Origin: an uncultured Nitrososphaerota archaeon | GTDB lineage: Archaea; Korarchaeota; Korarchaeia; Korarchaeales; Korarchaeaceae | Assembly: GCA_964480775.1 (NCBI GenBank) | Contig: CAYZRF010000006.1 | Coordinates: forward strand, 1 to 32,000 | Length of the DNA stretch: 32,000 nucleotides | Direction of reading: 5' to 3' | In this document: positions 11,729 to 32,000 of the stretch, one piece after another | How positions within the stretch are numbered: position 1 is the first letter of the stretch | Layout of the letters: each line of letters begins with the position of its first letter | The notes under the pieces: model-generated | The model's database searches: none | Told to the model about the DNA's origin: nothing | What the model saw: only the letters and a program-made list of their open reading frames with translations | Position numbers and translations under genes: made by a program

Positions 11729-11736
11729 GAAGGAAT

Positions 11737-13254: not shown

Positions 13255-13359
13255 TGATTTACGTCCAATAAACCATGGAATTTTGCTGAGACTTCATAAG
13301 TTATAACCGTATCCTCTTAAAAAATACTCTGGAAGGCTTAGGAGTGGGTAGGTGAGTCG

Positions 13360-13923: not shown

Positions 13924-13961
13924 AAGTTTATATCACAGGTTTGTAACTCTTACTTTGAAGA

Positions 13962-15176: not shown

Positions 15177-15228
15177 AATGTTAGAAAAGGGCATGGTTAT
15201 AAGCGAAAAAGATCTTTAAGGAATAGAG

Positions 15229-16940: not shown

Positions 16941-16947
16941 TCGTCTC

Positions 16948-19329
16948 ATGTCGGAGGGAGTGGGCTCACATATGTCAAGAGAAAGGCGTCTGATCCTATG
17001 GTTCGAAGAAACTAATATGAAAGATGTGCCTTTAGTGGGTGGCAAGTCAGCTAGTCTAGGTGAAATGATATCAATGGGCTTACCTGTCCCCCTGGGCTTC
17101 TCAGTAACTGCTTATGCTTACGAGAGATTTCTTAAGGAAATGGGAATAGCTGAAAGGATCTATGATATCATCAGGGAGGTTGTTGGTGAAGATAAGACCC
17201 CTGCCAATTACAATGAAGCCTCAAGAAGGATAAGAGAACTCATAGAGTCAACACCGATTCCAGAGGACATTGAAGAAGCAATAAAGAAAGCCTATCGGGA
17301 GTTAGAAGAGAGACTAAACATAAAGAACCCCCTAGTTGCTGTCAGAAGTTCAGCGACAGCCGAGGATCTGCCGGATGCTAGCTTTGCTGGCCAACAGGAG
17401 ACTTTTCTAGGAGTTAAGGGCGAAGATGAGTTAGTTGATAGGGTAAGGAAATGTTGGTCAAGTCTTTTTACTCCAAGAGCGATATCATACAGAGAGGACA
17501 AGGGCTTCAAGCATGAGGATGTACTCATAAGCGTGGGAGTTCAGAAAATGGTAAACTCCCGTAGTGCTGGAGTTATGTTTACTATAAACCCCGTTACAGG
17601 TAGAGAGGATGAGTTGGTTATTGAAGCAAGCTGGGGACTAGGAGAAACCGTAGTCGGAGGAAAAGTTACCCCAGACACCTATGTTATAGATAAAAAGACT
17701 ATGGAAATAAAAGAAAAGCACATAGGCGAGAAGAAAATAGAGATACTGTTAACACCAGAAGGAGGGACAATCGAAAGGGAAGTAGAAGAGGAAAGGAGAA
17801 AGATGCAGGCAATCTCAGATGAGGAGATAAAAAAGCTGGCAGAATATGGATTGAAGATCGAAGAACACTATGGGAAACCCATGGATGTTGAGTGGGCCGT
17901 TGATAAAGACTTAAATCCGCCCAATAACGTATTCATACTGCAAGCTAGGCCAGAAACGGTTTGGAGTCAAAGGGAGGCCGTAACGGAAGAAAAACCTAGG
18001 GCAGAGGTCAAAGCAGAACCTATAGTGAAAGGACTTCCAGCTAGTCCTGGAACAGCTGCTAGCGTCGCCAAAGTTGCATTAAGGTTAGAGGATGCTAAGG
18101 AATTGATTAAGGAAGGAGACATTCTAGTCACGAGAATGACGTCTCCTGACTGGGAACCTTACATGAAGATTGTTTCTGCAATAGTCACAGACGAAGGCGG
18201 TATGACCAGTCACGCAGCCATTGTTAGCAGAGAGCTAGGCATTCCATGCATCGTGGGAACAGGAAATGCAACGAAGGTCATGAAAACTGGAAAAGAGTAC
18301 ACGGTTGACGGTAGAACTGGTATGGTCTATGAGGGAATTAGAGAAGATCTTATCCGCAAACCTACTAGAGAGCTTGCTCCAGCGGCAGGAATTGGGTATG
18401 CTGGATTAGAAATCCCCATAACTGCCACAAAGATCTTCATGAACTTAGGAGTTCCTGAGAAGATAGAGGAATACAAAGACCTCCCAATAGATGGCATCGG
18501 ATTGATGAGAATTGAGTTCATAATAGCAAGCTGGATAAAGATGCATCCACTCGTAGCCATAGAACGCGGCAAATCAGATTTCTATGTAGAAAAGCTGGCT
18601 GAAGGTATTGGCATGGTAGCCAGGGCAATCTATCCCAAGCCAGTAGTAGTAAGATTGAGCGACTTCAAGACAAATGAATATGCAAAGCTAGAAGGAGGAG
18701 AAAAGTACGAACCAATAGAGGCTAACCCGATGCTTGGATGGCGTGGGGCCTCTAGATACATATCTCCAGCATTCGAACCAGCCTTCAGGCTTGAAGTAAG
18801 GGCCATAAAGAGATTACATGATCAAGGGTTAAACAACGTTTGGGTCATGATACCATTCGTAAGGACGATTTGGGAAGTTAAGAGGGTACTAGAGATAATG
18901 AAAGAGGAGGGTCTAGAGAGAAGTAAGAACTTCAAAGTCTGGGTAATGGCCGAGATTCCATCTAACGCTCTTCTAGCCGAGGAGTTTGCGGAGCTTGTCG
19001 ATGGCTTCAGCATAGGGTCAAATGACCTAACGCAATTAGTGCTTGGTGTAGACAGAGACAGCGAGGTTCTAGGAAGGGCAGGATATTTTGACGAACGAGA
19101 TCCAGCGGTTCTCAAAGCTATAAAACTTATAATAGAGGGAGCCCACAAGAAAGGAGCTACAGTAAGTATATGCGGTCAAGCACCAAGCGTATATCCTGAA
19201 TTTACCGAATTCTTAGTTAGAAACGGAATTGACAGTATAAGCGTCAATCCAGATGTAGTAGTAGCGACAAGAAGGCTAGTTGCAAGAGTAGAGAGAAGGG
19301 TAATGCTAGAAAAAGCCCTAAATGGCTAA
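16948..19329 (+). CDS. ppsA: Phosphoenolpyruvate synthase (pyruvate, water dikinase)
   Basis: 793 aa. ATP-grasp N-domain (VPLVGGKSASLGEM, VAVRSSATAEDLPDASFAGQQETFL), phosphohistidine domain (GGMTSHAAIVSRELGIPCIVG) and a PEP-utilizing TIM barrel (GSNDLTQL). Confidence 0.95.
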   Translation: MSEGVGSHMSRERRLILWFEETNMKDVPLVGGKSASLGEMISMGLPVPLGFSVTAYAYERFLKEMGIAERIYDIIREVVGEDKTPANYNEASRRIRELIESTPIPEDIEEAIKKAYRELEERLNIKNPLVAVRSSATAEDLPDASFAGQQETFLGVKGEDELVDRVRKCWSSLFTPRAISYREDKGFKHEDVLISVGVQKMVNSRSAGVMFTINPVTGREDELVIEASWGLGETVVGGKVTPDTYVIDKKTMEIKEKHIGEKKIEILLTPEGGTIEREVEEERRKMQAISDEEIKKLAEYGLKIEEHYGKPMDVEWAVDKDLNPPNNVFILQARPETVWSQREAVTEEKPRAEVKAEPIVKGLPASPGTAASVAKVALRLEDAKELIKEGDILVTRMTSPDWEPYMKIVSAIVTDEGGMTSHAAIVSRELGIPCIVGTGNATKVMKTGKEYTVDGRTGMVYEGIREDLIRKPTRELAPAAGIGYAGLEIPITATKIFMNLGVPEKIEEYKDLPIDGIGLMRIEFIIASWIKMHPLVAIERGKSDFYVEKLAEGIGMVARAIYPKPVVVRLSDFKTNEYAKLEGGEKYEPIEANPMLGWRGASRYISPAFEPAFRLEVRAIKRLHDQGLNNVWVMIPFVRTIWEVKRVLEIMKEEGLERSKNFKVWVMAEIPSNALLAEEFAELVDGFSIGSNDLTQLVLGVDRDSEVLGRAGYFDERDPAVLKAIKLIIEGAHKKGATVSICGQAPSVYPEFTEFLVRNGIDSISVNPDVVVATRRLVARVERRVMLEKALNG

Positions 19330-19338
19330 GCTATTAGC

Positions 19339-19776
19339 TTAGCCTACAATTTTTCTTGCCTTAGGTAGAAGATTTTTAATACGCCAACGATCATAGAGAC
19401 CAGAACCCAAATACAGATCTTCGGACTTTACGATTACAAGTCCGGGTTCCAATTCGTCTCTGGGATCAATCTCAATATCTTCCCCACGCATCCATTTGCT
19501 AACCATTTCTCGAGGGATCTCGAATACATTCTTCCTTGCTAAAGGTCCAAAAAGCTGAGTACCTTCAATGCTTAGCATTAATCCAAAAGGCGTCTCTTTT
19601 AGCACATATATTCCAACAAGCTGCGCTCTTTCTATTTTAGCTGCTTCTTTTGTAGTAGCCCTATATTTTCGCTTGCCTGACCTTACAATTACATATGGAA
19701 TATTTGCTATGCCATACCTATCATAGAGCCTTTCTCTGAGTTTCTCTAGCTCTTCTCTATCCAAAATTTCCCACAA
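19339..19776 (-). CDS. Stand-alone PUA-like RNA-binding protein resembling the RsmF C-terminal domains
   Basis: 145 aa. The C-terminal pattern GLVIVKSEDLYLGSGLYDRWRIKNLLPKARK resembles the PUA-like tail of RsmF-type methyltransferases (lGfGk...lKN.yPk.lR). It lies 7 nt downstream of the m5C methyltransferase gene. Confidence 0.5.
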   Translation of the reverse strand: MWEILDREELEKLRERLYDRYGIANIPYVIVRSGKRKYRATTKEAAKIERAQLVGIYVLKETPFGLMLSIEGTQLFGPLARKNVFEIPREMVSKWMRGEDIEIDPRDELEPGLVIVKSEDLYLGSGLYDRWRIKNLLPKARKIVG

Positions 19777-19783
19777 CTTATCA

Positions 19784-20743
19784 TTACCTCTTCGGTTTTT
19801 CTAACAAGCTAACGAAGAAACCCAACGTATCATTGTAATGAGGATATATTCTAAGACATTTCAACATGTCTGAATCGAACTTTCTATCTTTCCATTCGAG
19901 AAGACCTGGCGCAGCACGAAGTTTTGAGATATTTACTTTTAAGACTTCTGCTCCAAGTTCTATAAGGTGCTGTACCACTTCTTCATTCTCCTCTGGATCG
20001 AGTGTACAGGTGGAGTATACCATTATGCCTCCTGGCTTCAATGCAATGTAACCAGCAGTAGCTAACTCTTTCTGTAGTTTTGAGAGGCGAAGCACAAGAC
20101 GAGGACTCCATCGAAGTAGAGGACGCCAATTTCTTCTAGCCTCGCCAATTGAGCTACACGGTGCATCTAGGAGAACCTTATCAAATTTATTTTTACCAAA
20201 CACTTTGTGAACAAACCTTCCATCTAAACGAGTGATAGCTACATTTATCGAACCCATTCTCTGTACGTTCGAACTTAGTACATTTATTCTCGCTATACTT
20301 ATGTCATTGGCTATTATGACTCCTTTCCACTTCATCATCTCAGCCATCTGTGTTGTTTTCGATCCGGGGGCTGCTGTTAGATCAAGAACCACTTCATCTG
20401 GTCTAGGATTAAGAACTAAAGGAGGGACCATTGAGGCAGCATCTTGCACATAAAATAAACCTAATCTATGTTCTACCGTATTTCCAATGTTATCAGGACC
20501 CTCAACTACTTTGTAGCCCAATTCATACCAAGGTACTCTCTCGACATACCAATCCTTTTCATATAACCATTCTATGGATGCCTTCATAGGATTGAGTCTA
20601 ATAAACGTTGGAGACCTCCGAAACAAACATCTTATGAATTCTTCGTACTCAGATTTTAATAGAAACTTATATTTCTCCTTAAAATCATTTTTCAAATTAT
20701 CTTCTGTTAAAAAAGCTCTCCTTTTTTTATCATGTGGGGGCAT
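19784..20743 (-). CDS. NOL1/NOP2/Sun (RsmB/RsmF-like) RNA cytosine-C5 methyltransferase
   Basis: SAM-binding motif VLDLTAAPGSKT, catalytic motifs LLDAPCSSIGE and YSTCTLDPEENE, 319 aa. Confidence 0.85.
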   Translation of the reverse strand: MPPHDKKRRAFLTEDNLKNDFKEKYKFLLKSEYEEFIRCLFRRSPTFIRLNPMKASIEWLYEKDWYVERVPWYELGYKVVEGPDNIGNTVEHRLGLFYVQDAASMVPPLVLNPRPDEVVLDLTAAPGSKTTQMAEMMKWKGVIIANDISIARINVLSSNVQRMGSINVAITRLDGRFVHKVFGKNKFDKVLLDAPCSSIGEARRNWRPLLRWSPRLVLRLSKLQKELATAGYIALKPGGIMVYSTCTLDPEENEEVVQHLIELGAEVLKVNISKLRAAPGLLEWKDRKFDSDMLKCLRIYPHYNDTLGFFVSLLEKPKR

Positions 20744-20954
20744 TATTCAAGATCTCATTCTTAGTTAGTTCTGCTTAAAACTTCAATCTAATAATAACCA
20801 TGATTGTCATTTTTAGAAGGTTGTAGATAATAAATTCCATATTAAGAGAACTCTCTCCAAGAATGAAATATTTAGGACATATTCCTAACTATAATTTAAC
20901 TTTTACTTAAACAGATGATAAAACATAACGTCTTTTGTTTATTAACTTTATGCC

Positions 20955-20961
20955 AAAAAAA
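20955..20961 (-). terminator. Oligo-T termination signal after the island operon
   Basis: A7 on the + strand, which is T7 on the minus strand. It begins 15 nt past the TAG stop of the 721-aa ORF, at the transition to AT-rich spacer. Confidence 0.4.
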
Positions 20962-20975
20962 GAAGGGAGGAGGAG

Positions 20976-23141
20976 CTACTTGCTTTTTCCTCCAAACCCA
21001 AGGACCAGGGCCAGCAGAATAACTCCTATTAGGTAGCGGTACTCGTAGAGCAGGGCTTCAAACTCCTCCCTTTCCTCAGAGAACGGCGGCGTGGGCGTCT
21101 CGGTTGGAGCTGGCGTCGTTACGGACTGAGTACGGGAAGAGCTTCCTCCAGGACCTCCGGCAGGTGCTCCTCCAGGCCCTATGACCTCAAAGGCTTGCTC
21201 CTTCGTAGTGGTTGCGGTTCCTCCGTCTCCATCCTGAACCGTTCCTATGGCTGTGTAGTACCCCAGCTGTGCCTCTTGGGGAACCGTCCAGGCGTAGATA
21301 AAGACGTCGTATGTGGAATCGTAGCTTGCCGTCCCGGAGCTGACTATTGTTCCTGTTAGATCCTTTATCTGAATCGTTACCGTTAGGTTTTCGGTTGCCG
21401 TTTCGTTGTCGCTTGCCGCGAACTCAAGACCAACGACCTCTGCTCTCCTAACGGAGAAGGGAGTTGCTCTTGAGAAGCTTATCGTCGGTAGGTAATTGAC
21501 GTAGAAGCTAAACAGGTCGCTCTGAGTAGTACCTTCGCCATCGCTGACGTTCACATACCAATAATAGGTTTGCCCTCTTGAGACCGTTGCTTGAATCCCT
21601 GTCGTCGTTCCGTTGGCCACGTTTGTTAAGGTCCCGATTAGCGTATCATTTGACCAGTAGAAGCTTAGATTCATCGCATCCCCGTTGGGATCCGTGAAGG
21701 TGCAGTTCAGCCAAGGATTAACCACGCTTATTATCGTTCCATTTGGACTCGGAGAGGCCAAAGAAGGCTTGCTCGGAGGGATGTTCGTCGTGTAGGTAAC
21801 GTTCAGCTGGGGATGGAACTCGGTATAACCAGATTCCTTTGAATAGAAAATATGCCATCCGGAGCCATCGCCTGAGTTCGTGAAGTCCCTTCCTATGTAA
21901 ACTCCGTAATTAGCATAGGATCCGTTTACCCAGCCCTGAACAATCTCCTTTATGTCCCAAGTGTTCCAGCCGGTTGTTGCGTTCAGCTTCCTATAAACTG
22001 GGTCCGAGTAGGAGGGAAACGTGTTGTACGTTATCGTCGATTCGTCCCAGCTCGAAGTGATGCGGTGTATTTCGAGGAAGTCGATTCCCGCGGTCCAATA
22101 GTTCCGCCCATGGGAGTAAAGGCAAAGGAGAGCTTGAGTTATTGTGGCGTCGTTTGGAATCGAGCTTACATCGAATCTTATCGTCGTGTTATAGGGGTTT
22201 GTGTAGTCTCCAGCGTACAAATCGGTCGAGGAGCCGTAATTGGTATCTGGGTTGGCCCCATCACAATAGGCGTCGTCCGTTGGAGGGCTCAGCGTTATCG
22301 TTGTTGGGTCTAACGTGAACGGCTGGTCTTCTTTAGCGTTAAAGGGTCCGAAGACAACCGTCATCTTCTTAGAAGCTTGGGAGAAGGTTATGTTCCCTAT
22401 CCTATCGAGGCAGTCCCTGTAATCCTCCATAACCTTGAGACGTCTGTTTAAAGAGGAAAAAACGATTCTCTTAACTTTCGGAAGCTTGTTCGGCTTTGGC
22501 TTGAGTGCCTTGATTTTGAAAAGACCCGTCTCGTTCTCAAAGATCGGAAACTCCGAGACGTCGTTTGAGAAATCGATCTCCTTCACTATGAAGTGCCTGC
22601 CTCCCTGTAAGTAGTTAATGAATGAAACGGCTTGCTTCGCTCCCTGCCATGGCCTGAACGTGTGCTTTATCTCAAGCTTCCCTTGAGAGCACCACATTTC
22701 CCGCGTTATGTTCACTTCATCCTCATTTACGGTGAGGATCCAGTCCTCAAAAGCAAAACTTGTAGCTTTGAAGCCAGGCATCCAGACGCTCCAGCGCTCG
22801 ACGGCGAGCAGAGAGGTCATGTTAGGATCGTAGTACTCCGCGCGGTCCTCGAATATCTTGCAGGCAACCAAGCCAGTCCTTACTAAGTAATAGCCCTCAT
22901 CGCTGTGGTTCTCGAAGATAAGTGGAGCCCATTTCCCAGCTCTCGGATCGTAAACGTTCGGACGGCCTATTACCATCCTGAAAGCGGTTCCGTTCGTGTA
23001 TTTTATGTAATTGGGTCCGTATTCAACCAAGACCCAACCTTCTCCTTTCTCATTTTCCGCTTTTGTCTCTAAGGTAGTGAGAGCCGTGGACAAAGCAAGG
23101 AGCAGCAAAAGGGGAACGACGAAATGTCCTTTCCTTTCCAT
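20976..23141 (-). CDS. Large secreted, C-terminally membrane-anchored surface protein with a DNRLRE-like domain and Ig/Fn3-like repeats
   Basis: Signal peptide MERKGHFVVPLLLLLALSTALTTLETKA. DNRLRE-type pattern DDAYCDGANPDTNYGSSTDLYAG...TIRFDVSSIPNDATITQALLCLYS...IHRITSSWDESTITYNTFP...WDIKEIVQGWVNGSYANYGVYI. T/P-rich linker TTPAPTETPTPP, then TM helix YLIGVILLALVLGFGG and KSK. About 18 N-x-S/T sequons by my count. Confidence 0.7.
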   Translation of the reverse strand: MERKGHFVVPLLLLLALSTALTTLETKAENEKGEGWVLVEYGPNYIKYTNGTAFRMVIGRPNVYDPRAGKWAPLIFENHSDEGYYLVRTGLVACKIFEDRAEYYDPNMTSLLAVERWSVWMPGFKATSFAFEDWILTVNEDEVNITREMWCSQGKLEIKHTFRPWQGAKQAVSFINYLQGGRHFIVKEIDFSNDVSEFPIFENETGLFKIKALKPKPNKLPKVKRIVFSSLNRRLKVMEDYRDCLDRIGNITFSQASKKMTVVFGPFNAKEDQPFTLDPTTITLSPPTDDAYCDGANPDTNYGSSTDLYAGDYTNPYNTTIRFDVSSIPNDATITQALLCLYSHGRNYWTAGIDFLEIHRITSSWDESTITYNTFPSYSDPVYRKLNATTGWNTWDIKEIVQGWVNGSYANYGVYIGRDFTNSGDGSGWHIFYSKESGYTEFHPQLNVTYTTNIPPSKPSLASPSPNGTIISVVNPWLNCTFTDPNGDAMNLSFYWSNDTLIGTLTNVANGTTTGIQATVSRGQTYYWYVNVSDGEGTTQSDLFSFYVNYLPTISFSRATPFSVRRAEVVGLEFAASDNETATENLTVTIQIKDLTGTIVSSGTASYDSTYDVFIYAWTVPQEAQLGYYTAIGTVQDGDGGTATTTKEQAFEVIGPGGAPAGGPGGSSSRTQSVTTPAPTETPTPPFSEEREEFEALLYEYRYLIGVILLALVLGFGGKSK

Positions 23142-23150
23142 TTAACCCAC

Positions 23151-24095
23151 CTATACAGGAAGGAGCTTTTGGAACGTTCCAAGCCATGGCCTTGGGAAGC
23201 ATACCGAGGACCTTTGAGGTTCAGGCTCTGGAACAACGACGGCAGCTTTAGGCTCCTCTGTACTCTCGTCCGAGCTTTCTTGAGCGTTCAGGATGAGCGT
23301 ATCTAAGAGAACCGCGTTCTCGCTTCCAGGACAATAGACGTTTATGGTTATCGTCTTTTCTTCGAGTAGAACTCCCACGTCGCTGGGATTCTTGGGTTCG
23401 TACCCCGTTATGTTCCCCACTCTTATGGTAATGGTGTAGGTTCCTCCCACGTACCAGCCACTGAGACCAAGGGGATAGACAAATTCGCCGTCTTTCGTGA
23501 AGTCCGTGCTGAAAAGGAGCATCGAATCCGCTTTACCGGTAAAGGTTGCCGTTATCCTATACGTCCCATGTCCCTCTAAGACCCTGTACCCTACCGTAAC
23601 GTCCACGTTGTGGGCTGGAAGCTCAACTTCCCGCGGGAAGTTCTCGTACGCTATCCATCCGTCGTAATAGTGCATTTCTTGGTGAACTTCGGGTCCTCCT
23701 CCTTCTCCGACTTGGATGTAGATCGATACCCTGCTCGTAACCTTGCCATTTGCGTCCTTATCCTGCAGAATCAAGCCGTAGGTGCCGTTCTTTGCATCTG
23801 GAGGGACATGAACCTCTATATAGCAGCTTACCTTTTCCCCTTTCTTCCCCTTGTTCTTCTCTGAGTGAAGGCTACAGTCCCAGTCCTTGACCTTGTCCCC
23901 GTAAAGCTCGTTCGTGGCTTGCTCTTCCTTGTCGAAGTGCATCTTGTACGGAATCCTAACGACATCTCCAGGCTTCGCCTTGTAGTTATGCTTCTCGCAG
24001 ATTATATGATGAGGGCTGGCTAGTACTGGCTTAGTAGCTATGGATCCTATTAGGAGAAGACCCAAGAAAAGGCCAGCTAAAACCTTAGATTTCAT
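23151..24095 (-). CDS. Secreted protein, function unknown
   Basis: Signal peptide MKSKVLAGLFLGLLLIGSIATKPVLASP followed by beta-rich sequence and an acidic/proline-rich tail (ESTEEPKAAVVVPEPEPQ). The start overlaps the upstream ORF's stop (24092-24095). Confidence 0.6.
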   Translation of the reverse strand: MKSKVLAGLFLGLLLIGSIATKPVLASPHHIICEKHNYKAKPGDVVRIPYKMHFDKEEQATNELYGDKVKDWDCSLHSEKNKGKKGEKVSCYIEVHVPPDAKNGTYGLILQDKDANGKVTSRVSIYIQVGEGGGPEVHQEMHYYDGWIAYENFPREVELPAHNVDVTVGYRVLEGHGTYRITATFTGKADSMLLFSTDFTKDGEFVYPLGLSGWYVGGTYTITIRVGNITGYEPKNPSDVGVLLEEKTITINVYCPGSENAVLLDTLILNAQESSDESTEEPKAAVVVPEPEPQRSSVCFPRPWLGTFQKLLPV

Positions 24096-24526
24096 TTCTC
24101 ACAACCTCCCGGGGAATCTCCCTTTGGGAGATCCCTTTCCGAGGGTTCAAGGAGGCTTCCCAGCCTCCTCTCGAAAGAAAGGCGCCTGAACTCCTTGATG
24201 AGCCCAAGACACTCTTCTTTTGCCCCTTTCTTACATAGCTGAATGTCTAGGATTTTCTCAGCAAGCTGAACGGCTTTTTCATCCCTCAGGACTAAGATGC
24301 CAGAGCCTCCATCCAAGCCGTATGACTTCGCAAGATCTAAGAGGAGAAAGCCGAAGTACGATTTCGGAGACCTTGTGTTGTTGGCTATGTTGTAAATCTC
24401 CTTTCTGAGTTGGGGAATCCTGATGCGGTAGGCAAAGCCGTTTTTCTTTATGAGAACTCTCAGCTCCTTTATCTCGCATCCTTTCTCCCTAAGCCATGGA
24501 ACCAACGAAGCTACGGCCCTAGCCAC
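24092..24526 (-). CDS. Hypothetical protein (island operon)
   Basis: 144-aa ORF, co-directional and overlapping both neighbours. GTG start preceded by GGGAGGG. No motif recognised. Confidence 0.45.
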   Translation of the reverse strand: MARAVASLVPWLREKGCEIKELRVLIKKNGFAYRIRIPQLRKEIYNIANNTRSPKSYFGFLLLDLAKSYGLDGGSGILVLRDEKAVQLAEKILDIQLCKKGAKEECLGLIKEFRRLSFERRLGSLLEPSERDLPKGDSPGGCEK

Positions 24527-25166
24527 TCTTATCCCTCCCTTTCCTCACCAATATGGAAGCCCAAGGGTTGTCGAGAAGTTCCTCCATTCCTCCGATTCCT
24601 TTGGGGATCTCGACCTGGACCGGCTCTTCATCAAGCTCTGGCTCGATTGCTGAGGATCCATCAGCGGGAATTGGATCCTTTGGAGTGCCCTGTTCACGTA
24701 TTACGCCATGAGAACCCAGCAAGGCCTTGAGGCGTTCCACTTCAGAAGCCAGCTCCTCGATCCGCTTGTCGTAATACTTGGACCCTATGTAGGGGCCTTT
24801 TTCATAGGATCCATTTCCATCCAAGAAGGAAGTTAGGGCCTGAATTATCAGCTCTGTCATGGTTTTGTCCTCTAATATGGCTCTCCTCCTTAGCTTGCGC
24901 TTGAGATCCCTAGGTATCCTTGCCGTTATGACAACGTCAAGAAAGGGAGGGAGGAATAACAGGGTCAGGTTGAGCTTTCCTTTGAGGAGCTTGGGAACGA
25001 TGAGTAAGAGCAGAACTATTAGGATCAGGGGCTTTAGCTTCCAAGCTATCTTCAGCAAGAGGTAGATGAAGCCCAAGACTGCGAAGAAAACGATTGTTTT
25101 TCTAACTGGATCCGGGAGGGCTTTGATCCACTCAATAAGGCTTAGAATCGTGGTTAGGCCGTCCAT
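24519..25166 (-). CDS. Membrane-anchored ribbon-helix-helix (CopG-like) protein
   Basis: Two predicted TM helices (TIVFFAVLGFIYLLLKIAW, PLILIVLLLLIVPKLL). An RHH-like segment follows, VVITARIPRDLKRKLRRRAILEDKTMTELIIQALTSFL. Then a coiled-coil (RIEELASEVERLKALL) and an acidic tail. Confidence 0.55.
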   Translation of the reverse strand: MDGLTTILSLIEWIKALPDPVRKTIVFFAVLGFIYLLLKIAWKLKPLILIVLLLLIVPKLLKGKLNLTLLFLPPFLDVVITARIPRDLKRKLRRRAILEDKTMTELIIQALTSFLDGNGSYEKGPYIGSKYYDKRIEELASEVERLKALLGSHGVIREQGTPKDPIPADGSSAIEPELDEEPVQVEIPKGIGGMEELLDNPWASILVRKGRDKSG

Positions 25167-25429
25167 CTTTCCGAGATCACCTCCTCAAGCTTAACTTCCC
25201 TCAAAGCCAGCGCAAGAGCCTCTTCCAGCCTCTTAGTTCCCTTTATCTTCAGTACAACGTCAAAGCGAGGCTCGGATTCGGGAAAGCATAGCCTAACGTA
25301 TGTCCGCAGCTTTGGATGTTCTGGCTTAATCCGCTTTCGGTAGATGATGGCAAAAAATCCGGGAAGTTTGAAGCTCTTTGCATAGCGGGCTTTTTTGGGG
25401 ACGAAAGGAACGATTATAGCTTCTTTCAT
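25154..25429 (-). CDS. Hypothetical small basic protein (island operon)
   Basis: 91-aa ORF with a 4-nt start/stop overlap to the upstream gene. No motif recognised. Confidence 0.4.
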   Translation of the reverse strand: MKEAIIVPFVPKKARYAKSFKLPGFFAIIYRKRIKPEHPKLRTYVRLCFPESEPRFDVVLKIKGTKRLEEALALALREVKLEEVISERWTA

Positions 25430-25656
25430 GGAATCACCTCCTCAACAATTTTGTGGTTGAGAAGAATCCTAGCGTTGGTTTCCGGAAGATGGGCAACGTC
25501 TCCAGGGCTGAACGGTCCATAGGTCTGAAGGTCTGGATAGCCTACGAAGGCGGGACATGGCTTTCTGAAGGCAACTAAGACCAAAGCTTTGTTCAATGGA
25601 TCCTTTGGCTCCAGCTTGATTTCCTCTTTCTCTATAAGATAAGCTTCCAAGCTCAT
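25426..25656 (-). CDS. Small protein resembling the GINS B-domain (Psf2/Gins23-like beta domain)
   Basis: Segment FVGYPDLQTYGPFSPGDVAHLPETNARILLNHKIVEEV resembles the GINS B-domain pattern, for example eukaryotic Psf2 ...[28 protein letters not shown]. I start at ATG 25656, 1 nt after the primase stop, rather than at the track's TTG 25698. Confidence 0.4.
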   Translation of the reverse strand: MSLEAYLIEKEEIKLEPKDPLNKALVLVAFRKPCPAFVGYPDLQTYGPFSPGDVAHLPETNARILLNHKIVEEVIP

Positions 25657-25657
25657 C

Positions 25658-27070
25658 TTATCTAACTCCCTCCCTTCTTTGGATTCTGAGATATGCAAGA
25701 GGATTCTTTAGGCCGCAATCAGCCACGCATAAGCCTAACTCCTTCATTCTCTCGCAGGAATGAGGCAAATAGCCCTTTTCGCTTATCTGCTTGATTTGGT
25801 AAGCCGTTATCTTCTCCACGAACCTTGGATCGTTTCTAAAGAGGTCTATGAGCTGCTCTTCGGTCCATCCAGCCTTTTTCAGGTAAGCAACTAACGTAAA
25901 GCGAGCCGTATGAGGAAGGTGCTCTCCACTTTTCGCTCTCTCTATCAGCTTTTTCATGCAAGGAGGCGTTTGTATGGGGCCTTTCGGGATGAATCTCCTT
26001 ACTTTTACCTTCTTGTCTCCCTTTGACTTTACAAATTCCGCAATTTTGAGAAGATCAAGAAAGCTTCTCGCAGAGACAGGATCAAGAGTTCCCCAATAGC
26101 TAACAAACGGTAAAAGATGGCTCTGAGGATCCACTCTCTTAGCTCTCTCTCTGTTAAGCCTGAGTGGCTTCCAAAAGCTGAAATAGATCGATATAAGACC
26201 CTTAGGATGAGGAGAGAACAGAGCCCTTATTGTTCCCCTTTTTCGATAGAGCTGCTTATCGAACACGACAGGAAAGCCCTTCCAAGCCAGCCAATCCTCT
26301 AAATACTCAACTAAGGCTCTGTATTTCGATTGAATCTTCAGATTGAAGCTAAGATATTCTTCCAGATCCATTTCATAGATGAGTTCAGTAATGTCGAGAA
26401 GACCGTGGATTCCATTCCCTGAGATCTTCCAGAGAAGCTCTATTCCGTGCTTCCTTAGTTCTGAGTCTAGAATGGCAAGGGCCCTAACATCCCTCTGCGG
26501 ATCATATTCTTTCTGTGCGTTGAAATCAAGATCGAGGACAAAATCTGTGAATAAGGCATAGAATTGACCATTAAAAGCCTCTGGATGGCTCTTCTTCAAG
26601 TCTTCAACCGTAATAAGCAAGCTTGATGATTCTAAGAGATCCTTTAGGAGAGGGACGTAAATGTAACGTTGCTGGGAGACATGAAGGCATGGAGGACTGA
26701 AGCGGTCCACGTTCTCTATAACGAATCTCTTGAAGTGCTCCTTTTCTGTGAATATGTGCCACTTCGTGAAGCCCTGCTCCTTGTTACCCATTGAAACCTC
26801 TCTATAAGTGACGTAGGTCTTCCTGTTGTAGCGGAAAAAGCGCTGAACTTGGAGCCAATAAAGATCGATGCGGTTCTTGACGAAAGCTCGAAGTTTAATA
26901 GGATCCGCTTCACTATGATCGGTTTGGTTTGTTTGGTAGTTTGGTCGTTTTGGTAATTTGGTAATGTTTGAAGACAGACCTTTATTCTCAGAACATAGTG
27001 TGTCTTTGATTGTTACCAAATTACCAAATTCACCAAATGACCAAAGCGCTTCGTTAGTCCTTGGTTTCAT
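25658..27070 (-). CDS. Archaeo-eukaryotic primase (PriS-like AEP domain) fused to a PriL-type C-terminal Fe-S domain
   Basis: AEP motif I FVLDLDF. Motif II LWKISGNGIHGL. Motif III VVFDKQLYRKRGTIRALFSPHPKG. C-terminal PPCMKKLIERAKSGEHLPHTARFTLVAYLKKAGWTEEQLIDLF matches the PriL/p58 pattern (PxCMxxL...HLxHxxR...LKxxGxxxEQ). Further Cys residues: LPHSCERMKELGLCVADC. The first ~70 codons are low-complexity and coincide with the DNA repeats. Confidence 0.8.
   Translation of the reverse strand: MKPRTNEALWSFGEFGNLVTIKDTLCSENKGLSSNITKLPKRPNYQTNQTDHSEADPIKLRAFVKNRIDLYWLQVQRFFRYNRKTYVTYREVSMGNKEQGFTKWHIFTEKEHFKRFVIENVDRFSPPCLHVSQQRYIYVPLLKDLLESSSLLITVEDLKKSHPEAFNGQFYALFTDFVLDLDFNAQKEYDPQRDVRALAILDSELRKHGIELLWKISGNGIHGLLDITELIYEMDLEEYLSFNLKIQSKYRALVEYLEDWLAWKGFPVVFDKQLYRKRGTIRALFSPHPKGLISIYFSFWKPLRLNRERAKRVDPQSHLLPFVSYWGTLDPVSARSFLDLLKIAEFVKSKGDKKVKVRRFIPKGPIQTPPCMKKLIERAKSGEHLPHTARFTLVAYLKKAGWTEEQLIDLFRNDPRFVEKITAYQIKQISEKGYLPHSCERMKELGLCVADCGLKNPLAYLRIQRREGVR
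26923..27045. repeat. Iteron-like inverted-repeat array (candidate replication origin or Rep-binding site)
   Basis: Five TTTGGT units start at 26923, 26932, 26940, 26949 and 26957. They face four ACCAAA units at 27015, 27023, 27032 and 27040, with 8-9 nt periodicity. Perfect 16-bp inverted repeat: TTTGGTAATTTGGTAA (26949-26964) with TTACCAAATTACCAAA (27013-27028), 48-nt spacer. The spacer holds a nested AAGACA/TGTCTT palindrome (26971-76/27001-06). Confidence 0.75.
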
Positions 27071-29148
27071 GATTTTTCCCCTCCCTGTTCTGCTCCTCCT
27101 TCAATCAGCTTGATCTGATCTCTTTCTCTTGGTAGATCCGTTGAGAGCCTTCCTATCGGTTCAATGTGCTCGCAAGGTTGGGGATCGAGTATTCTAACGT
27201 AGATATCATCATCGTTCTTCTCAAGCTCTATTTTGAGCAGATCTCTAAGCTTCAAATTCAGATTTTCGAGATTCTTTCTTCTTCTTAGAAGACTGATGCA
27301 CTCAGAGAGGTAGTTGTATTCTTGAGGAACATAGGGTATCTCGGCAAGCCGTACCCGATCTCCATCCTCGACGTTTGGAAGGATCTCCCTCCTATAAAGC
27401 TCAATTGCTGAGATTATCTCTCTCAAATAAGCAGGCATCCTCTTGAAGAGTCTCTCGATCCTAAGGCCTATCTCTTCCTCATAGGACCTTGTTATTGCTT
27501 CAATCGAGTCCAAGTTGAGGTCCACAAACTCAGGGAGAAGCTCCTCAGCCTCTTTAAGGATCTCATCTATGGAATACTCTTTGAGGGCTATCCTATCCAA
27601 ATTTTCAACTATTGCAACATTAAGAGCAGCTCCTCTTATTCTGCGCTGTGCTCCCCTCCCATGCTCCCATAAGAAGGCTTTAACTTCCTCATCCTCTATT
27701 GAAGCTATTTTTTCCTCTATCTGATCTTCATATCCTTCAATAGGTTCTCCGAGCCACTTCTCAACTTTCTTGTCATAGTAGATCTTCCTTATCTCTGGAA
27801 GAGCATACTCCTCGACAGCTCTGAAGAACGAGACGGCTTCTCTCCATTCTTCCTCGACGTTTAGAGTTTCAGCCTCAACCCTTTGAAAGTCCTTTCCATA
27901 GACGATTAGGCCAAATCGCCTTCCCATGGCTGGGTTCTTGCTCATAGCCTTGATTATGGACCCAAAAGCCGTGGCTGGATCCTTTGATTCTCCTATCGGA
28001 TTTCCAAGTATCGCCCAAGGAGACCTTGACTTTACCAAAAACTCGGTTGCTGCCGTGGTTACCCTTCCCTCCCCTGTTTCAAGCACTTGGAACAAGAAGC
28101 GAAGGTTCTGCCTGAAGAACTGAGATTCCATCTGGTCGCAAGCTATGACAAGCTCGGAATGATGAATTATTCCAGGATAGACTTCGTCCGGACTCTTAGC
28201 ATAACCGAGGAAGGTGTTCGGACTGATTTTGTCGTATCTATGGCCTATCATCTCGTAAAGAAGAGACTTTCCAGTTCCTCCGTTTGTGAACTCCAAGGCG
28301 TGTGGATTATACTCAGGCCTTACTCCCCTGAGAAGATGGGCTTCCCAAACCAACTTGAGTCTTGAATCTTTCCTAGCTCTGAAAGAGAGGAGCCTATCGA
28401 CGAACGAAAGCCAGTCCATTTCTTTTAGAATGGAAGGGTCCTTAAGCTTGGGGATTGGTTTTAAAAGGAGCCTGGCCTCGGCTACTTCTTTTGCAAGGTC
28501 CAACTCTTCCTCTTTATCATTGCCATCCAGAAAGCCATGTTTACGCAGTAGTTTCTTTATCCTCCTTTTCTCGTTTTCAGGAAGGGCTTCTATGTATGGT
28601 CTAGCTTCCTCTGGATCAAGAACAACCTGTAAGGCCAAATCGTTCCTCCGGGGGCTTACAAAACCATCCGTATCCAGAACTAAGCGAGGAGCAAGGAAGA
28701 GGTCCTCCTTGATGCTCCAGAGCTTCCATAGGATTTCGACGCCGTAATAGAGACCTTTTTGATCGATTTTGGGAATAGTGTGGAAGAAGAAGGGAGAGAT
28801 GGATGCCACTCTAATGGGTTTGTTTACGGCATCCCTCCAATCTCCCCTCGGAATAGGATCCACAATTCTGGCGCCTATTTGTCTCAGAACTTCATTTAGA
28901 GACTTATCAATTTCCTCTAAGTCCAGCGAGGGAAGGAGGGAGTTATCGGCCTCTTTTATTAGCTTGAGAATCTCTTTTTTGAGTTCTCCCACCTTAACCT
29001 CGCTTTGTCTGGTGAATGGGCCCCATTCTCCATGCTTCCCCTTATACTCGAAGATTATGAAGTCTCCTTGCGCTCTGGATTCCTTTGTAAGAAGGAAAGA
29101 TTGCTTCTCGCTCATGAGCACCACCATCGCCCCATTAATTCTGTTCAT
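27067..29148 (-). CDS. Divergent MCM-like AAA+ ATPase (putative replicative helicase)
   Basis: Walker A FTNGGTGKSLL. Walker B-like LVIACDQME. VLETGEGRVTTAATEFLVKSRSPWAILGNPIG parallels the MCM region AMEQQTISIAKAGI..LNAR.SVLAAANP. NPAMGRRFGLIV parallels the arginine-finger region SRFDLIF. The stop overlaps the primase start (ATGA 27067-27070). In-frame ATGs at 29127 and 29115 are alternative starts. Confidence 0.55.
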   Translation of the reverse strand: MNRINGAMVVLMSEKQSFLLTKESRAQGDFIIFEYKGKHGEWGPFTRQSEVKVGELKKEILKLIKEADNSLLPSLDLEEIDKSLNEVLRQIGARIVDPIPRGDWRDAVNKPIRVASISPFFFHTIPKIDQKGLYYGVEILWKLWSIKEDLFLAPRLVLDTDGFVSPRRNDLALQVVLDPEEARPYIEALPENEKRRIKKLLRKHGFLDGNDKEEELDLAKEVAEARLLLKPIPKLKDPSILKEMDWLSFVDRLLSFRARKDSRLKLVWEAHLLRGVRPEYNPHALEFTNGGTGKSLLYEMIGHRYDKISPNTFLGYAKSPDEVYPGIIHHSELVIACDQMESQFFRQNLRFLFQVLETGEGRVTTAATEFLVKSRSPWAILGNPIGESKDPATAFGSIIKAMSKNPAMGRRFGLIVYGKDFQRVEAETLNVEEEWREAVSFFRAVEEYALPEIRKIYYDKKVEKWLGEPIEGYEDQIEEKIASIEDEEVKAFLWEHGRGAQRRIRGAALNVAIVENLDRIALKEYSIDEILKEAEELLPEFVDLNLDSIEAITRSYEEEIGLRIERLFKRMPAYLREIISAIELYRREILPNVEDGDRVRLAEIPYVPQEYNYLSECISLLRRRKNLENLNLKLRDLLKIELEKNDDDIYVRILDPQPCEHIEPIGRLSTDLPRERDQIKLIEGGAEQGGEKS

Positions 29149-29587
29149 CTGGCTCTACCTCTTTCAATGTGAACTCTCGCCCGCATTTTGGACAGAAAAG
29201 CCTTTCTGAGGCAAATTGCTGTTTAACTGGAACTGTGCAGACAGGGCAAAGTGGCACAAAGACATCCTCTTGATCTGTGAGTTCTCTGGCCTCCCTATCT
29301 ACTCTCCAAAGCTCTTCTTCATTATTTCTGTAAACAATTGAAGCAATCAGGAGAGCGAGGAGTTTATTCTGGACTCTAATTTCTTGAATTAGAGCTTCCA
29401 CAAAGGGAAGCGACCGCCCGCCCCCTTCTCGGGCGAAGCTTTTTTTACTTTCCAACGTTTTCATCCTTGGGAAGACCTCCCAGGCCTCCTGTGTGGGGAG
29501 GCTTTCTGGGGGTTGGGGGCTTTGCCCCCTCTTTTTTCTTGGATTTCTACAATGAGTTTTAGCAACTCCACCTTCCATTTTGGCCAT
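29135..29587 (-). CDS. Zinc-ribbon protein (first gene of the island operon)
   Basis: C-terminal CPVC-x15-CPKC zinc-ribbon (LCPVCTVPVKQQFASERLFCPKCGREF). The N-terminal 41 codons are R/K/P-rich and overlap GC-rich hairpins, so the real start may be Met42 (ATG at 29464). Confidence 0.5.
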   Translation of the reverse strand: MAKMEGGVAKTHCRNPRKKRGQSPQPPESLPTQEAWEVFPRMKTLESKKSFAREGGGRSLPFVEALIQEIRVQNKLLALLIASIVYRNNEEELWRVDREARELTDQEDVFVPLCPVCTVPVKQQFASERLFCPKCGREFTLKEVEPDEQN

Positions 29588-29617
29588 ATTTTCTCCAGAA
29601 CAGCCAGCTCCTCAGAA

Positions 29618-29818
29618 CTAAGGTGTTGGGACATTTTCGACTACCTCATGAATTTTTTCGAGATAACCAAGCTCCTGTAGTGTTCTGATAACGCAGAAAC
29701 GATAGAAGCCAGATCTGGATAAGCCAAGGTCTTTTCTTGCTTTTTCGGCCAATTCGAAGACCTTTCGTTTAAGATAAACTAACTCTCTTCGACTTTCCTC
29801 TTGAATGGCTTCAACCAT
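29618..29818 (-). CDS. Ribbon-helix-helix (CopG/Arc-like) DNA-binding protein
   Basis: 66 aa. Pattern ELVYLKRKVFELAEKARKDLGLSRSGFYRFCVIRTLQELG, that is a beta-strand followed by two helices. The palindromic operator lies immediately upstream. Confidence 0.6.
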   Translation of the reverse strand: MVEAIQEESRRELVYLKRKVFELAEKARKDLGLSRSGFYRFCVIRTLQELGYLEKIHEVVENVPTP

Positions 29819-29821
29819 TTA

Positions 29822-29902
29822 TTGATACCTCACTGAAATCGTGAGGTATTAGTGAAATATAAATATTGCATTGATGGTATTATATTGGATGTGAGGTATC
29901 AA
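29822..29902. promoter_or_regulatory. Bidirectional promoter with three copies of a 9-nt operator motif
   Basis: ATACCTCAC (29825-29833) and GTGAGGTAT (29841-29849) form a palindrome with a 7-nt spacer. A third GTGAGGTAT lies at 29891-29899. The 12-mers TTGATACCTCAC (29822-33) and GTGAGGTATCAA (29891-29902) are exact reverse complements. An AT-rich TATA-like AAATATAAATATT sits between them. Confidence 0.6.
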
Positions 29903-30651
29903 TGAGTAGTGAAAAGTCAAGAAGAAAGTCTAGATTGCTACTAAGACCTAGCGAACTCAAGATTCTTTGTTATATCCTTTGTCAGGGTCTTGCTTCGGGT
30001 TACGAGATTGGTAAGGCACTAAAAATGCCTGAATCGACAGTATATACGGCCTTAAAGTTTCTAGAAAGAAGAGGGTTTGTGACTTTTATTGAAGAGGAAA
30101 AAGCAGGACCATTAAAAAAGAAAATATATAGACTAACTCCAAAGGGTCTGCAAGAAGCTTTGAGTTATATACCTCGGGAAAAAGAGGTTTGGGATAACGA
30201 ACTCCTCCGAGAGCTGATTTCTCGTGAAAGTGGAGTTCCCTTTGAGTCCTTGAAGTTCAAAAAAGACCGACTCTTAGAAAATTGGGATGTAATAATGGGA
30301 ATCATTAGAAAAAAGTACAGAGAAATGTGTCCAATCATCTTTGATAATTGGGATCTAATCTCTAAACATCTTGATCTTAGTAGAGGCGAGTTCCTTGATA
30401 ACCTCTTCTACTCCTACAAAGACCCCAAAGAGCGAACGATTGCTTCCTTCCAAGAGTATTTCTTTGTTTCTTTAGTTATTAAGCCATCAGAAGAAGAAAA
30501 AACGAGAATTGAAAAATTCTTGAAGGAAGCTAGTGAGATAAAGCCTTTGAAAGACATCCTTACTATAGCATTTAAAGAATTAGAGGAGCGTGTAGAGAGG
30601 TCCTTAGAAGATATCAAAAAAATAAAGACCCGTCTTTCACAAAGCCCCTAA
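29902..30651 (+). CDS. PadR-like winged-helix transcription regulator with a long helical C-terminal extension
   Basis: N-terminal LKILCYILCQGLASGYEIGKALKMPESTVYTALKFLERRGFVTFIEEEKAGPLKKKIYRLTPKG matches the PadR wHTH pattern. 249 aa and AT-rich (21/60 G+C at 30061-30120). Confidence 0.65.
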   Translation: MSSEKSRRKSRLLLRPSELKILCYILCQGLASGYEIGKALKMPESTVYTALKFLERRGFVTFIEEEKAGPLKKKIYRLTPKGLQEALSYIPREKEVWDNELLRELISRESGVPFESLKFKKDRLLENWDVIMGIIRKKYREMCPIIFDNWDLISKHLDLSRGEFLDNLFYSYKDPKERTIASFQEYFFVSLVIKPSEEEKTRIEKFLKEASEIKPLKDILTIAFKELEERVERSLEDIKKIKTRLSQSP

Positions 30652-31675
30652 CCATTTTTTCGAATCAGAAGAGGATTCAAATCCTTACCAAGAGAATCCA
30701 CAGCATCGAAAGAAAAACACTCCAAAGGCGTTTTCGTGTTAGGACATGCCCCATGACCTATCTAACTTAGATAGGACCACTTCCCATAGCCCATGTTCCT
30801 TAAATATGACTTCCGAAGGTGCACTTGGTTTACTTTTTGCACCACTTTGTGAAGTTTGTATCCTTGAAGATACCATCTCAAGCCTTGATCTCGAACCTAA
30901 AAGAACAGATTTGAACCCTCTGAAGCTTGGATCTCTTAATGGCTTGTAACCATCCCACAAAAGGATAATAGGTTTTATCTGGCCTGCTTAATGCCCTCCC
31001 AAGCCTTAGAGGAGTGAGGAAGAAAGTCCGAGCACGACGGACATCGAGCCCTTCCCTCCCGGTCTATAAGCTGGGGTTCGATTACAAGGCCTAGGATCCG
31101 AGTTCATGCGACTTCCGATTGTGTACAAAGTACGCTACAATCATAACGATACCCACGAACCCCTGAGAACTACCCCAAATCTCGAACCTCCTTCGCCTTG
31201 CGGATCGTGTTGTAAACAGCCAAGTCCTAAACCCTCCCGGCTTCTCTTCACCTTTTCGCAAGAGGATCCAAGCCCTGTAAAAGGGGAAATAAGGGGAGGA
31301 TAAACGTCGCAGGGGATAGCCCTTATTTCCTAAACACCAAGTGTACTTTTTGCACCAAGTTCCATTTCTTTAAAATTTCGTAATAAGGGTACCCCAACCC
31401 CTATTTTCAACGGATGCTAGCGTCAGAGAGTTGTTCTTGTGCCAACCTTTCTGTGGTTTTTTCCAAAACCCCCGGGCCGCCGAGCGAAGATCTTCGAAAC
31501 AACCGACAAAATAGGGAAAAGAGAGAGGAGAGTGAAGAATAAAACCGCGGGAGGATGCCTCGATTTTTCTCCGATTTTCTCCAACCCCTCCTCATGTTTT
31601 CATAGAAAACTTTTAGAGAATAACCTATTTATTGGACGTGAAAATAAATATATAGAAGATTGGAAGGATGTGAAA

Positions 31676-32000
31676 ATGATGAGCAGCAAGGGAGTGAGTC
31701 TCAAACGCTCCCTAATCCTCTGGTTGGTAAGAGAGTTCGAGAAGATGTTTGATAGGGGAATTACGGTAACTAGGCTAATGAAGCTTCTATACATGATAGA
31801 TGTCCGTCTAAAGAGTCTTGGTTTACCAACAACGAATATCAGATGGATTAGGTTTTGGTATGGTCCCTTTTCCGATGAAGTCATAGATCTGATAGAAGGA
31901 ATGGTCAAAGATAAGTCTTTAAGGAAGGAATATATCCCCTACGAAACCAAACTAATTAAAATCCTACATACTAAAGAGAATGTTAAACTGGACTCTAAAG
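31676..32000 (+). CDS. Partial CDS: Panacea (DUF4065, SocA-like antitoxin-type) domain protein, truncated by the window end
   Basis: Absent from the ORF track because no stop lies in the window. My translation from ATG 31676: MMSSKGVSLKRSLILWLVREFEKMFDRGITVTRLMKLLYMIDVRLKSLGLPTTNIRWIRFWYGPFSDEVIDLIEGMV... The KL.KLLY...W.YGP pattern is characteristic of DUF4065. Confidence 0.55.
   Translation, partial: MMSSKGVSLKRSLILWLVREFEKMFDRGITVTRLMKLLYMIDVRLKSLGLPTTNIRWIRFWYGPFSDEVIDLIEGMVKDKSLRKEYIPYETKLIKILHTKENVKLDSK

Follow-up and report, generated by a model that had tools for sequence, protein, structure and literature searches.

In the Thermococcales, TKV2, TKV3 and pTN3 represent a type of integrated element or plasmid that encodes an MCM protein. 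Cryptic integrated elements (CIEs) that encode an MCM are in fact known from Thermococcales, Crenarchaeota and Thaumarchaeota, e.g. the thaumarchaeal CIEs NitGar-E6 and NitEve-E3 (PMC6563490). Here we describe a block of genes within a stretch of archaeal DNA of 32,000 nt (positions 1 to 32,000 of contig CAYZRF010000006.1; this whole stretch is called the window in the following), which is in kind such an archaeal MCM-encoding CIE. Its host is an archaeon of hydrothermal sediment that resembles Korarchaeota, and at ≥90% identity the phosphoenolpyruvate synthase of this DNA falls into a cluster with proteins from Guaymas-type assemblies, for which the NCBI name is Candidatus Korarchaeota. In the reading that we favour, with a probability of roughly 0.7, the block represents one end, together with the replication core, of an integrative element that is plasmid-like and at least 11 kb long. 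In this reading the element is integrated at the host TFS gene, carries its own replication operon and is coupled to the host polymerase.

The first-pass annotation of this DNA had described nine co-directional, abutting open reading frames (ORFs) on the minus strand, and the ORF list of the window contains all nine of them, running from 29587 down to 20976. The 4-nt start/stop overlaps that it gave (27067-27070, 25426-25429 and 24092-24095) follow from the ORF coordinates, the T7 run said to close the array is found at 20955-20961 (A7 on the plus strand), and its spot counts of G+C (38/60, 26/60 and 21/60) are exact. Absent from its list were a tenth co-directional ORF (29618-29818, 66 aa) and a divergent winged-helix regulator gene (29902-30651, plus strand). 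The abrupt shift in composition that it reported can be seen in three measures: G+C amounts to 0.475 in 20976-29818 compared to 0.418 in the host part (1-20846); 2-kb windows between 21 and 30 kb differ from the host part by z = 4.1-11.2 in tetranucleotide L1 distance (about 11 at 21-25 kb and 4-6 across the replication genes; host windows, -1.3 to 2.5); and G+C at third codon positions (GC3) is 0.42-0.59 in the nine ORFs, with eight of them at 0.47-0.59, vs 0.33-0.42 in eight host genes. Matching the earlier description, there is no tRNA gene at the edges of the block, the sole tRNA gene of the window (tRNA-Asp, 8668-8744) being far off.

Loci that carry related modules were compared with the window. 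L002 and L003 show the same gene order (regulator, 66-aa protein, helicase, primase, Gins51C protein, then homologues of the 91-, 215-, 144- and 314-aa proteins), with identities to the window of 79% for the helicase, 53% for the primase and 75% for the Gins51C protein, and in L002 the module is flanked by host genes unrelated to those of the window. Loci L016-L018 represent a third variant of the module. The helicase family has more distant members in assemblies of Bathyarchaeia and Nitrososphaerota. There the core order is retained, from the divergent helix-turn-helix (HTH) regulator through the small gene(s) and the helicase to the archaeo-eukaryotic primase (AEP), and a tyrosine integrase is often located nearby, as in L012, whose integrase overlaps a tRNA-Gly gene, and in L015, L050, L051/L052 and L053. 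In L051/L052 the unit measures ~11.3 kb and has fragments of a Bac_luciferase-family gene at both flanks.

Taken together, the block is foreign, horizontally acquired DNA, as had been proposed, because its composition deviates, because a module with the same gene order and a 79% identical helicase occurs in a different host context (L002) and because relatives of the helicase lie beside tyrosine integrases. The same related copy and the adjoining integrases of the distant relatives make it part of a mobile element, and two signs of an integrative element, namely different chromosomal contexts and foreign composition, are both present. Since the block encodes homologues of core replication proteins, one might think that the host inherited it vertically as a core locus for replication. 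This is contradicted by the deviant composition, by the absence of the block from the syntenic locus L019 and by the different context in L002; in addition, the helicase family is rare, is devoid of the canonical MCM signatures and has relatives that are linked to integrases. The chance of vertical inheritance is thus close to nil.

Some features of the relatives may be recorded here. The unit of L051/L052 (L051 574-11843) is an apparently complete relative with the integrase at one end; its helicase gene is followed first by an 80-aa ORF and then by an ORF of 1076 aa. In L014 (847-5824) a member of the helicase family lies directly beside type III CRISPR-Cas genes (Cas10, RAMP proteins). A second copy of the 144-aa gene, 66% identical, occupies 3-350 of L002, at the contig start and ~3 kb beyond the L002 regulator, which suggests tandem or neighbouring related elements.

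The left end of the element can be located by comparison with L019, a metagenome contig that is syntenic with 9385-20743 of the window at 65-93% amino-acid identity. The left junction carries a putative att core of 17 nt, ATTCTTGGAGAGAGTTC (minus-strand reading), at 20847-20863, identical to the last TFS codons in L019; we assign it from the 16-mer TTCTTGGAGAGAGTTC, which matches exactly at 20848-20863 (minus strand) and at L019 5424-5439, the TFS 3' end. The window copy lies ~100 bp upstream of an rRNA methyltransferase gene, and a degenerate copy of TTCTTGGAGAGAGTTC occupies the equivalent position in L019 (9856-9871). Next to the att copy follows a conserved terminal arm (20864-20965, minus strand) of ~100 nt that includes the terminator-like T7 run and is ~75% identical to L002 11106-11212. 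As this arm is shared with L002 although the neighbouring host genes differ (the L002 counterpart adjoins a 5-formyltetrahydrofolate cyclo-ligase gene), it is the end of the element rather than host DNA. The earlier statement that the edges have no convincing direct repeats is thus not established, as the left end carries one putative att copy and a conserved arm and the right end lies beyond the window.

The first-pass annotation had also suggested a comparison with a related genome that lacks the island, and L019 is indeed a syntenic relative without the module at this site: past the methyltransferase gene, helicase and primase are both missing from it, and a decayed element of 4.4 kb is found there, followed by TFS, NYN and DUF373. 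In the decayed element an integrase SAM-like fragment lies at the TFS-proximal end; its other contents are a ParE toxin, part of a nucleotidyltransferase and the 144-aa gene in frameshifted form (9031-9425). In the closest syntenic genome the same site is taken by a different, decayed element with a degenerate att (L019 5424-9871), which makes the TFS 3' end a likely hot spot of repeated integration in this lineage.

None of the TFS, NYN and DUF373 host genes is present in the window. Because the TFS gene is missing from it, the far end of the element, where relatives keep the integrase, probably lies beyond base 32000. The simplest reading of these sequence matches would be an integration into the TFS 3' end with a 17-nt core, of which the window holds the distal att copy; the element is at least 11.1 kb long. 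Within the window, Pfam scans revealed no recombinase and a search with the integrases of the relatives yielded noise only. The description of the block as integrase-less is nevertheless not established, as the right end is beyond the window and the integrase of the relatives is expected there. One could take the missing recombinase trace, together with the ORF-free stretch of 1 kb at 30652-31675 and the clearly decayed element at the same site in L019, as signs of an immobilised remnant that has lost its integrase and its ability to excise and whose genes are decaying or have been domesticated by the host. This is unlikely, given that none of the ten ORFs of the operon is disrupted, that these ORFs are tightly coupled and follow the same order as in L002, that the att copy exactly matches the target sequence, that the composition has not ameliorated and that the part where relatives carry the integrase is simply outside the window.

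The plasmid-like integrative element owes its replication core to three adjacent genes, the first of which encodes a protein of 693 aa (27067-29148, minus strand). For this protein nothing above threshold was found in Pfam, PHROGs, NCBIfam or PADLOC, nor by sequence in the PDB. Its designation as an MCM-like AAA+ ATPase holds at the level of the fold, but not by any sequence threshold. An AlphaFold2 (AF2) model calculated on an alignment of 20 helicase homologues (A1) reached a pLDDT of 80.8 and a pTM of 0.72, and the top 50 Foldseek matches in the PDB were all MCM proteins, either archaeal or eukaryotic subunits (E 3.4e-9 to 2e-7, probability 1.00), over alignments of 486-776 columns with TM-scores of only 0.22-0.33, as expected for multi-domain models. 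The family profile aligned with MCM3 (E = 0.008) across Walker B, sensor 1 and arginine finger, placing IDQIES on IDEFDK, GNP on AANP and GRRFG on SRFD of MCM3. Residues T288, G293 and K294 of the P-loop, N383 and R411 are invariant in A1; Walker A, the sensor-1 Asn and the arginine finger are thus all in place. In the AF2 model, beta-strands at 116-175 could form an OB-like barrel, and strand pairs are seen at 315-325 (between the two Walker motifs) and 360-374 (just before sensor 1), the places where the helix-2 insert and the pre-sensor-1 beta-hairpin are expected; this applies to a predicted model, considered as a whole chain only.

PF00493, the Pfam family matched by most members, never reached the threshold in this family: there was no match in the window protein, 3 of the 20 family members gave one (best E = 0.032), and 1 of 34 distant members matched at 3e-4. 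An exhaustive profile search retrieved 527 clusters at E <= 1e-3, 230 of them at E <= 1e-30. Among the 34 distant members (P0048-P0190) there are three fusions to Prim-Pol and two or three to a Toprim/DnaG-type primase, a pattern expected of a replicative helicase of mobile elements; two members contain inteins (LAGLIDADG). A canonical MCM was not found in any of the fetched loci. The modelled structure argues for a helicase with the MCM fold whose family stands apart and is very divergent, with helicase activity as a prediction.

The second gene (25658-27070, minus strand) encodes a primase of 470 aa in which a PriS-like AEP is fused to the Fe-S C-terminal domain of PriL. Here the earlier assignment proved correct on the basis of Pfam and NCBIfam matches, motifs and profile matches to known structures. 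Residues 366-467 match Pfam DNA_primase_lrg (PF04104) at 3.2e-19 (69.7 bits; cut-off 22.4) and NCBIfam PriL at 3e-33. In an alignment with the primases whose genes come next after the helicase gene in other loci (A2), the AEP motif residues D182, S217, G218, H222 and R282 (with the motif S217-G218-x-x-x-H222) are invariant, H288 is nearly so, and four cysteines are aligned in most members. Searched against the PDB, the A2 profile found S. solfataricus PriS (4.2e-10), PriL (1.9e-7) and eukaryotic PriS (~5e-6). The AF2 model of the primase, based on a 6-sequence alignment, has a pLDDT of 52, and residues 370-450, in the PriL domain, are its only confident part. The PriL Fe-S part (residues 368-467) is 43-52% identical to two PriL proteins of cellular length (P0025, P0026) and thus far closer to cellular proteins than the rest of the primase is, which hints at capture of this domain from a host.

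The third gene, at 25426-25698 (minus strand), encodes a stand-alone Gins51 C-terminal (B) domain (90 aa for the longest ORF, 76 aa in the database gene call). The GINS-B-like protein suggested previously is confirmed by a match to Pfam Gins51_C (PF22090) at 1.6e-14 (53.8 bits; cut-off 27) and by an alignment to residues 108-179 of the 188-aa Thermococcus kodakarensis Gins51 (3anw, 5ghr), i.e. to the linker and the B domain. As only these parts align, the protein is not a complete GINS subunit; it does not have the A domain, which builds the GINS tetramer. Only three close homologues were found, all of 76-82 aa, and the literature searched did not describe any mobile element that encodes the C-terminal domain of Gins51 on its own. 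In Thermococcus the C-terminal domain of Gins51 binds both GAN/Cdc45 and the N-terminus of the PolD subunit DP1 (PMC9023282, PMC5100581), and Korarchaeota are inferred to have PolD (PMC3914693, Table 1). The comparison of the replication set with a small CMG complex (MCM, GINS and GAN) is sound with respect to homology; it fails with respect to content, as a Cdc45/GAN gene is missing and the GINS piece has no A domain, and an assembly of that kind would at most be a putative one.

The Gins51_C-like protein might alternatively be a detached accessory domain of the primase, a counterpart of the C-terminal domain of PriS that acts within the primase of the element only. Translational coupling links its gene to the 3' end of that for the primase, and the fused primase runs from AEP to PriL without a domain of this kind in between. 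The archaeal PriS C-terminal domain shares its fold with GINS B domains, the priS and gins genes being often adjacent (PMC2861644). However, the Gins51_C match is well above threshold and extends to T. kodakarensis Gins51 itself, and no match of the protein to PriS has been reported. We therefore regard a role confined to the primase as possible, but as the less probable of the two.

A candidate replication origin is proposed at the junction of the helicase and primase genes. At 26923-27045 an inverted iteron array comprises five copies of TTTGGT on the plus strand and four on the minus strand, with a period of 8-9 nt and a spacer of 52 nt. These nine copies fall within 123 bp, and the window as a whole contains 37 copies compared to 18 +/- 4 expected. 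Within the primase ORF the array spans codons 9-50, which are not conserved in the closest homologue. L002 has the same architecture at 7764-7880, with TTTCGT on both arms, and by eye L016 shows a GGCAA/TTGCC version at ~70-155, which the inverted-repeat finder did not report. That the architecture is kept while both arms change their core in step suggests binding by a protein of cognate specificity. Further upstream, the divergent promoter/operator region between the regulator and the operon (29819-29901) contains three copies of GTGAGGTAT (0.2 expected), all of them within 29825-29899, and the inverted repeat I4.

From these features the following working of the plasmid-like element can be proposed. 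It would integrate at the 3' end of the host TFS gene and leave the 17-nt att copy at 20847-20863; beyond base 32000 would lie the second att copy together with the TFS gene and, probably, a tyrosine integrase. The divergent promoter with its three GTGAGGTAT operators would be under the control of the winged-helix regulator and/or the 66-aa protein and might drive one long operon that encodes the Zn-ribbon protein, helicase, primase, Gins51C protein, four small and two secreted proteins, and that would end at the T7 run. The two inverted TTTGGT arrays would serve as the origin and bring a pair of helicase rings into a head-to-head arrangement, perhaps with the help of the Zn-ribbon protein. 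Primers would be made by the fused primase; as the element appears to have no polymerase of its own, the free Gins51 C-domain, judged from the work on Thermococcus, may couple the host polymerase (PolD) and/or GAN to the helicase of the element. In its most specific form, this proposal has the Gins51C protein dock host PolD (via DP1) and/or GAN onto an Orc1/Cdc6-independent, self-loading two-ring MCM-fold helicase at an inverted iteron origin, which we consider doubtful at present. If true, however, the element would provide a natural minimal module of archaeal replisome recruitment and reveal an unrecognised deep branch of MCM (~500 clusters, no Pfam model).

Several observations weigh against the picture of a TFS-integrated element with its own helicase and a link to the host polymerase. 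An integrase, a second att copy, a circular junction or a free form of the element was not seen, the right end being beyond the window. There is no empty site either: among 31 loci with the methyltransferase gene there is a single close one, L019, whose site is occupied, while TFS lies beside the methyltransferase gene in none of the more distant ones; moreover, the att core is short (17 nt). Walker B of the helicase reads D338-Q339-x-E341 (DQxE) instead of the DExD of MCM, with the glutamine, nearly invariant throughout the family, at the place of the canonical catalytic glutamate, and residues 1-290 contain no cysteine and hence no N-terminal zinc motif; for both reasons helicase activity is not assured. 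The interactions of the Gins51C protein are predicted ones, and when the alignment is mapped onto the two Gins51 residues known to be important for binding of DP1 (PMC9023282), V148 is replaced by F51, which is conservative, and V170 by T74, which is not, so that conservation of this interface is partial. Finally, the iterons lie within the primase reading frame and could alternatively form an mRNA hairpin or a binding site for a regulator.

The remaining genes of the operon are mostly small. The 66-aa protein, a small regulator-like protein encoded by the first operon gene, has homologues at the same position in L002/L003 and L004. Just upstream of the helicase gene, a separate Zn-ribbon protein of 150 aa is encoded (29135-29587, minus strand), with CPVC...CPKC as a C-terminal zinc ribbon in the translation and weak Zn-ribbon matches in Pfam. 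Downstream of the Gins51C gene, and likewise on the minus strand, follow a 91-aa protein without family match (25154-25429; homologue at the same position in L002/L003), a 215-aa protein with an N-terminal membrane segment and a weak ribbon-helix-helix (RHH) signal (24519-25166; Pfam RHH_1 0.026, PHROG Arc-like repressor 1.3e-3), of which residues 79-215 alone are conserved in relatives, and a conserved 144-aa protein without family match (24092-24526; 77-78% identical in L002 and L016-L018). The last two genes encode a 314-aa protein with a signal peptide, read from the translation (23151-24095; homologues of 62-72% at the same position in L002 and L016-L018), and a 721-aa secreted, membrane-anchored cargo protein (20976-23141) with a DNRLRE/CBM96 domain (NCBIfam DNRLRE_dom 1.6e-34, Pfam CBM96 1.1e-20), whose translation shows signal-like N-terminal and hydrophobic C-terminal segments.

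Such a distal operon, with a signal-peptide protein followed by a large surface-anchored protein with a carbohydrate-binding domain, could also belong to a provirus, derived from an archaeal virus that has so far gone unrecognised and is enveloped or has no capsid (pleomorphic or spindle-shaped type). The secreted and membrane proteins, including the membrane RHH protein, would then be parts of the virion or its envelope. Structural proteins of archaeal viruses are often unrecognisable by sequence, and part of the element is unseen. As noted previously, however, no capsid or packaging ATPase can be recognised: PHROGs and Pfam gave no match for a capsid, portal, terminase or packaging ATPase, and no relatives of the helicase were found in IMG/VR or in GenBank phage records. 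In addition, the cargo end varies among close relatives, the 721-aa protein having no homologue in the fetched part of L002 and an STT3-like gene being next in L018, which fits accessory cargo better than a structural module. A viral origin thus seems distinctly improbable. Plasmid records were equally unproductive, since a tblastn search of the primase and helicase against 72,556 of them, pTN2-type plasmids included, returned no match. The earlier remark that the replicon cannot be placed therefore stands for named plasmid and virus families; it does not stand in general, as the plasmid-like integrative element belongs to a recognisable, though unnamed, family of such elements.

The divergent regulator (249 aa) is TrmB/PadR-like (Pfam TrmB 2e-10, PadR 1.7e-7), and a divergent HTH regulator is found at the same position in L002, L012, L014 and L051. 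Its winged helix also matches the HTH of Csa3/CARF-type CRISPR-associated regulators (PADLOC 3.9e-8; NCBIfam), with no CARF domain present; apart from this HTH, PADLOC detected no defence-system match. Beyond the regulator lies the ORF-free, compositionally deviant stretch of ~1 kb (30652-31675; no long ORFs, tetranucleotide z 2.8-3.8), which gave no Rfam match at E <= 1 and no fold signal. An RNase P-like RNA considered at 30940-31330 from a GAAAGTCC-like motif was rejected, as there was no Rfam match at that cut-off and the folding z was ~0 on both strands; likewise, a 17-nt direct repeat (D13; 30828-30844 and 31341-31357, one mismatch) is by estimate near chance level. L002 has an ORF-free stretch of 1.4 kb at the same relative position (1828-3197), with no significant similarity to that of the window. 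The window ends in the start of a SocA/Panacea-domain (antitoxin-like) gene (31676-32000, plus strand; cut by the window end), for which the Pfam SocA_Panacea match of 5.6e-5 is just below the cut-off. On the same side of the element, L002 carries a DUF2283/PBECR2 pair. Probably, the whole of 30652-32000, i.e. the ORF-free kilobase and the SocA/Panacea gene, is part of the element.

Few mobile elements of Korarchaeota and Bathyarchaeia are found in the literature searched, and the family to which the element belongs, defined by a conserved core of divergent regulator, MCM-fold helicase and AEP primase, spans Korarchaeota, Bathyarchaeia and Nitrososphaerota assemblies. Like the MCM-encoding CIEs, the element is small and integrated, has no recognisable virion genes, encodes an MCM-type helicase as its presumed main replication protein and shows a short putative att sequence, HTH/RHH regulators and variable cargo. 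The MCM of CIEs, however, is recognisably canonical and thought to be recruited from hosts, whereas the window helicase remains below every MCM threshold and has a DQxE Walker B; also unlike in CIEs, this type of helicase is always paired with an AEP primase gene and, in this subgroup, with a Gins51 C-domain gene as well. A helicase family that is invisible to domain libraries and yet MCM-folded bears on how often, and how anciently, mobile elements took up MCM.

The origins of SV40 large T antigen and papillomavirus E1 consist of inverted short repeats around a spacer, on which two hexamers are assembled head to head without a loader. The iteron array resembles them in its short inverted repeats around a central spacer, as a functional analogy only: T antigen and E1 are helicases of superfamily 3, another superfamily, and binding of the iterons by the window helicase would be an extrapolation from these systems. 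As arrays that change in concert, the iterons are a candidate origin for the loading of an MCM-type helicase without Orc1/Cdc6.

In the plasmid pTN2 the helicase that partners the primase belongs to superfamily 1, unlike the MCM-fold partner of the window primase. PolpTN2, a primase-polymerase of the pTN2-like Thermococcales plasmids (PMC5862659), is likewise a PriS-PriL fusion that a mobile element encodes, with the AEP catalytic domain and a PriL-like Fe-S domain on a single chain; the window primase is much shorter (470 aa), has no PriCT-1 domain according to Pfam, PHROGs and NCBIfam, and shows no detectable sequence similarity to any plasmid record. With the archaeal CMG and PolD (PMC9023282, PMC5100581, PMC3307487) the element shares the MCM fold and the C-domain of Gins51, the hub for GAN and the N-terminus of DP1. 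In contrast to the cellular CMG, it has no gene for GAN/Cdc45, no Gins A domain and no Gins23, and its helicase has no zinc motif; without a Gins A domain and Gins23, the proteins of the element alone cannot build a GINS tetramer. The free Gins51 C-domain nevertheless offers a testable idea of how an element without a polymerase may be coupled to the PolD/GAN of its host. Finally, BcMCM of a Bacillus cereus prophage (PMC2715239) and Cch of SCCmec (cited in PMC5862659) are, like the window helicase, divergent MCM-type AAA+ proteins that are encoded by mobile elements and linked to a primase. These two are bacterial and have no MCM N-terminal domain, whereas the window helicase is archaeal and aligns with full-length MCM proteins over 500-770 columns in Foldseek. 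What sets the element apart from the known systems is thus an unrecognised helicase family that always comes together with an AEP primase, as well as a free Gins51 C-domain and a korarchaeal host.

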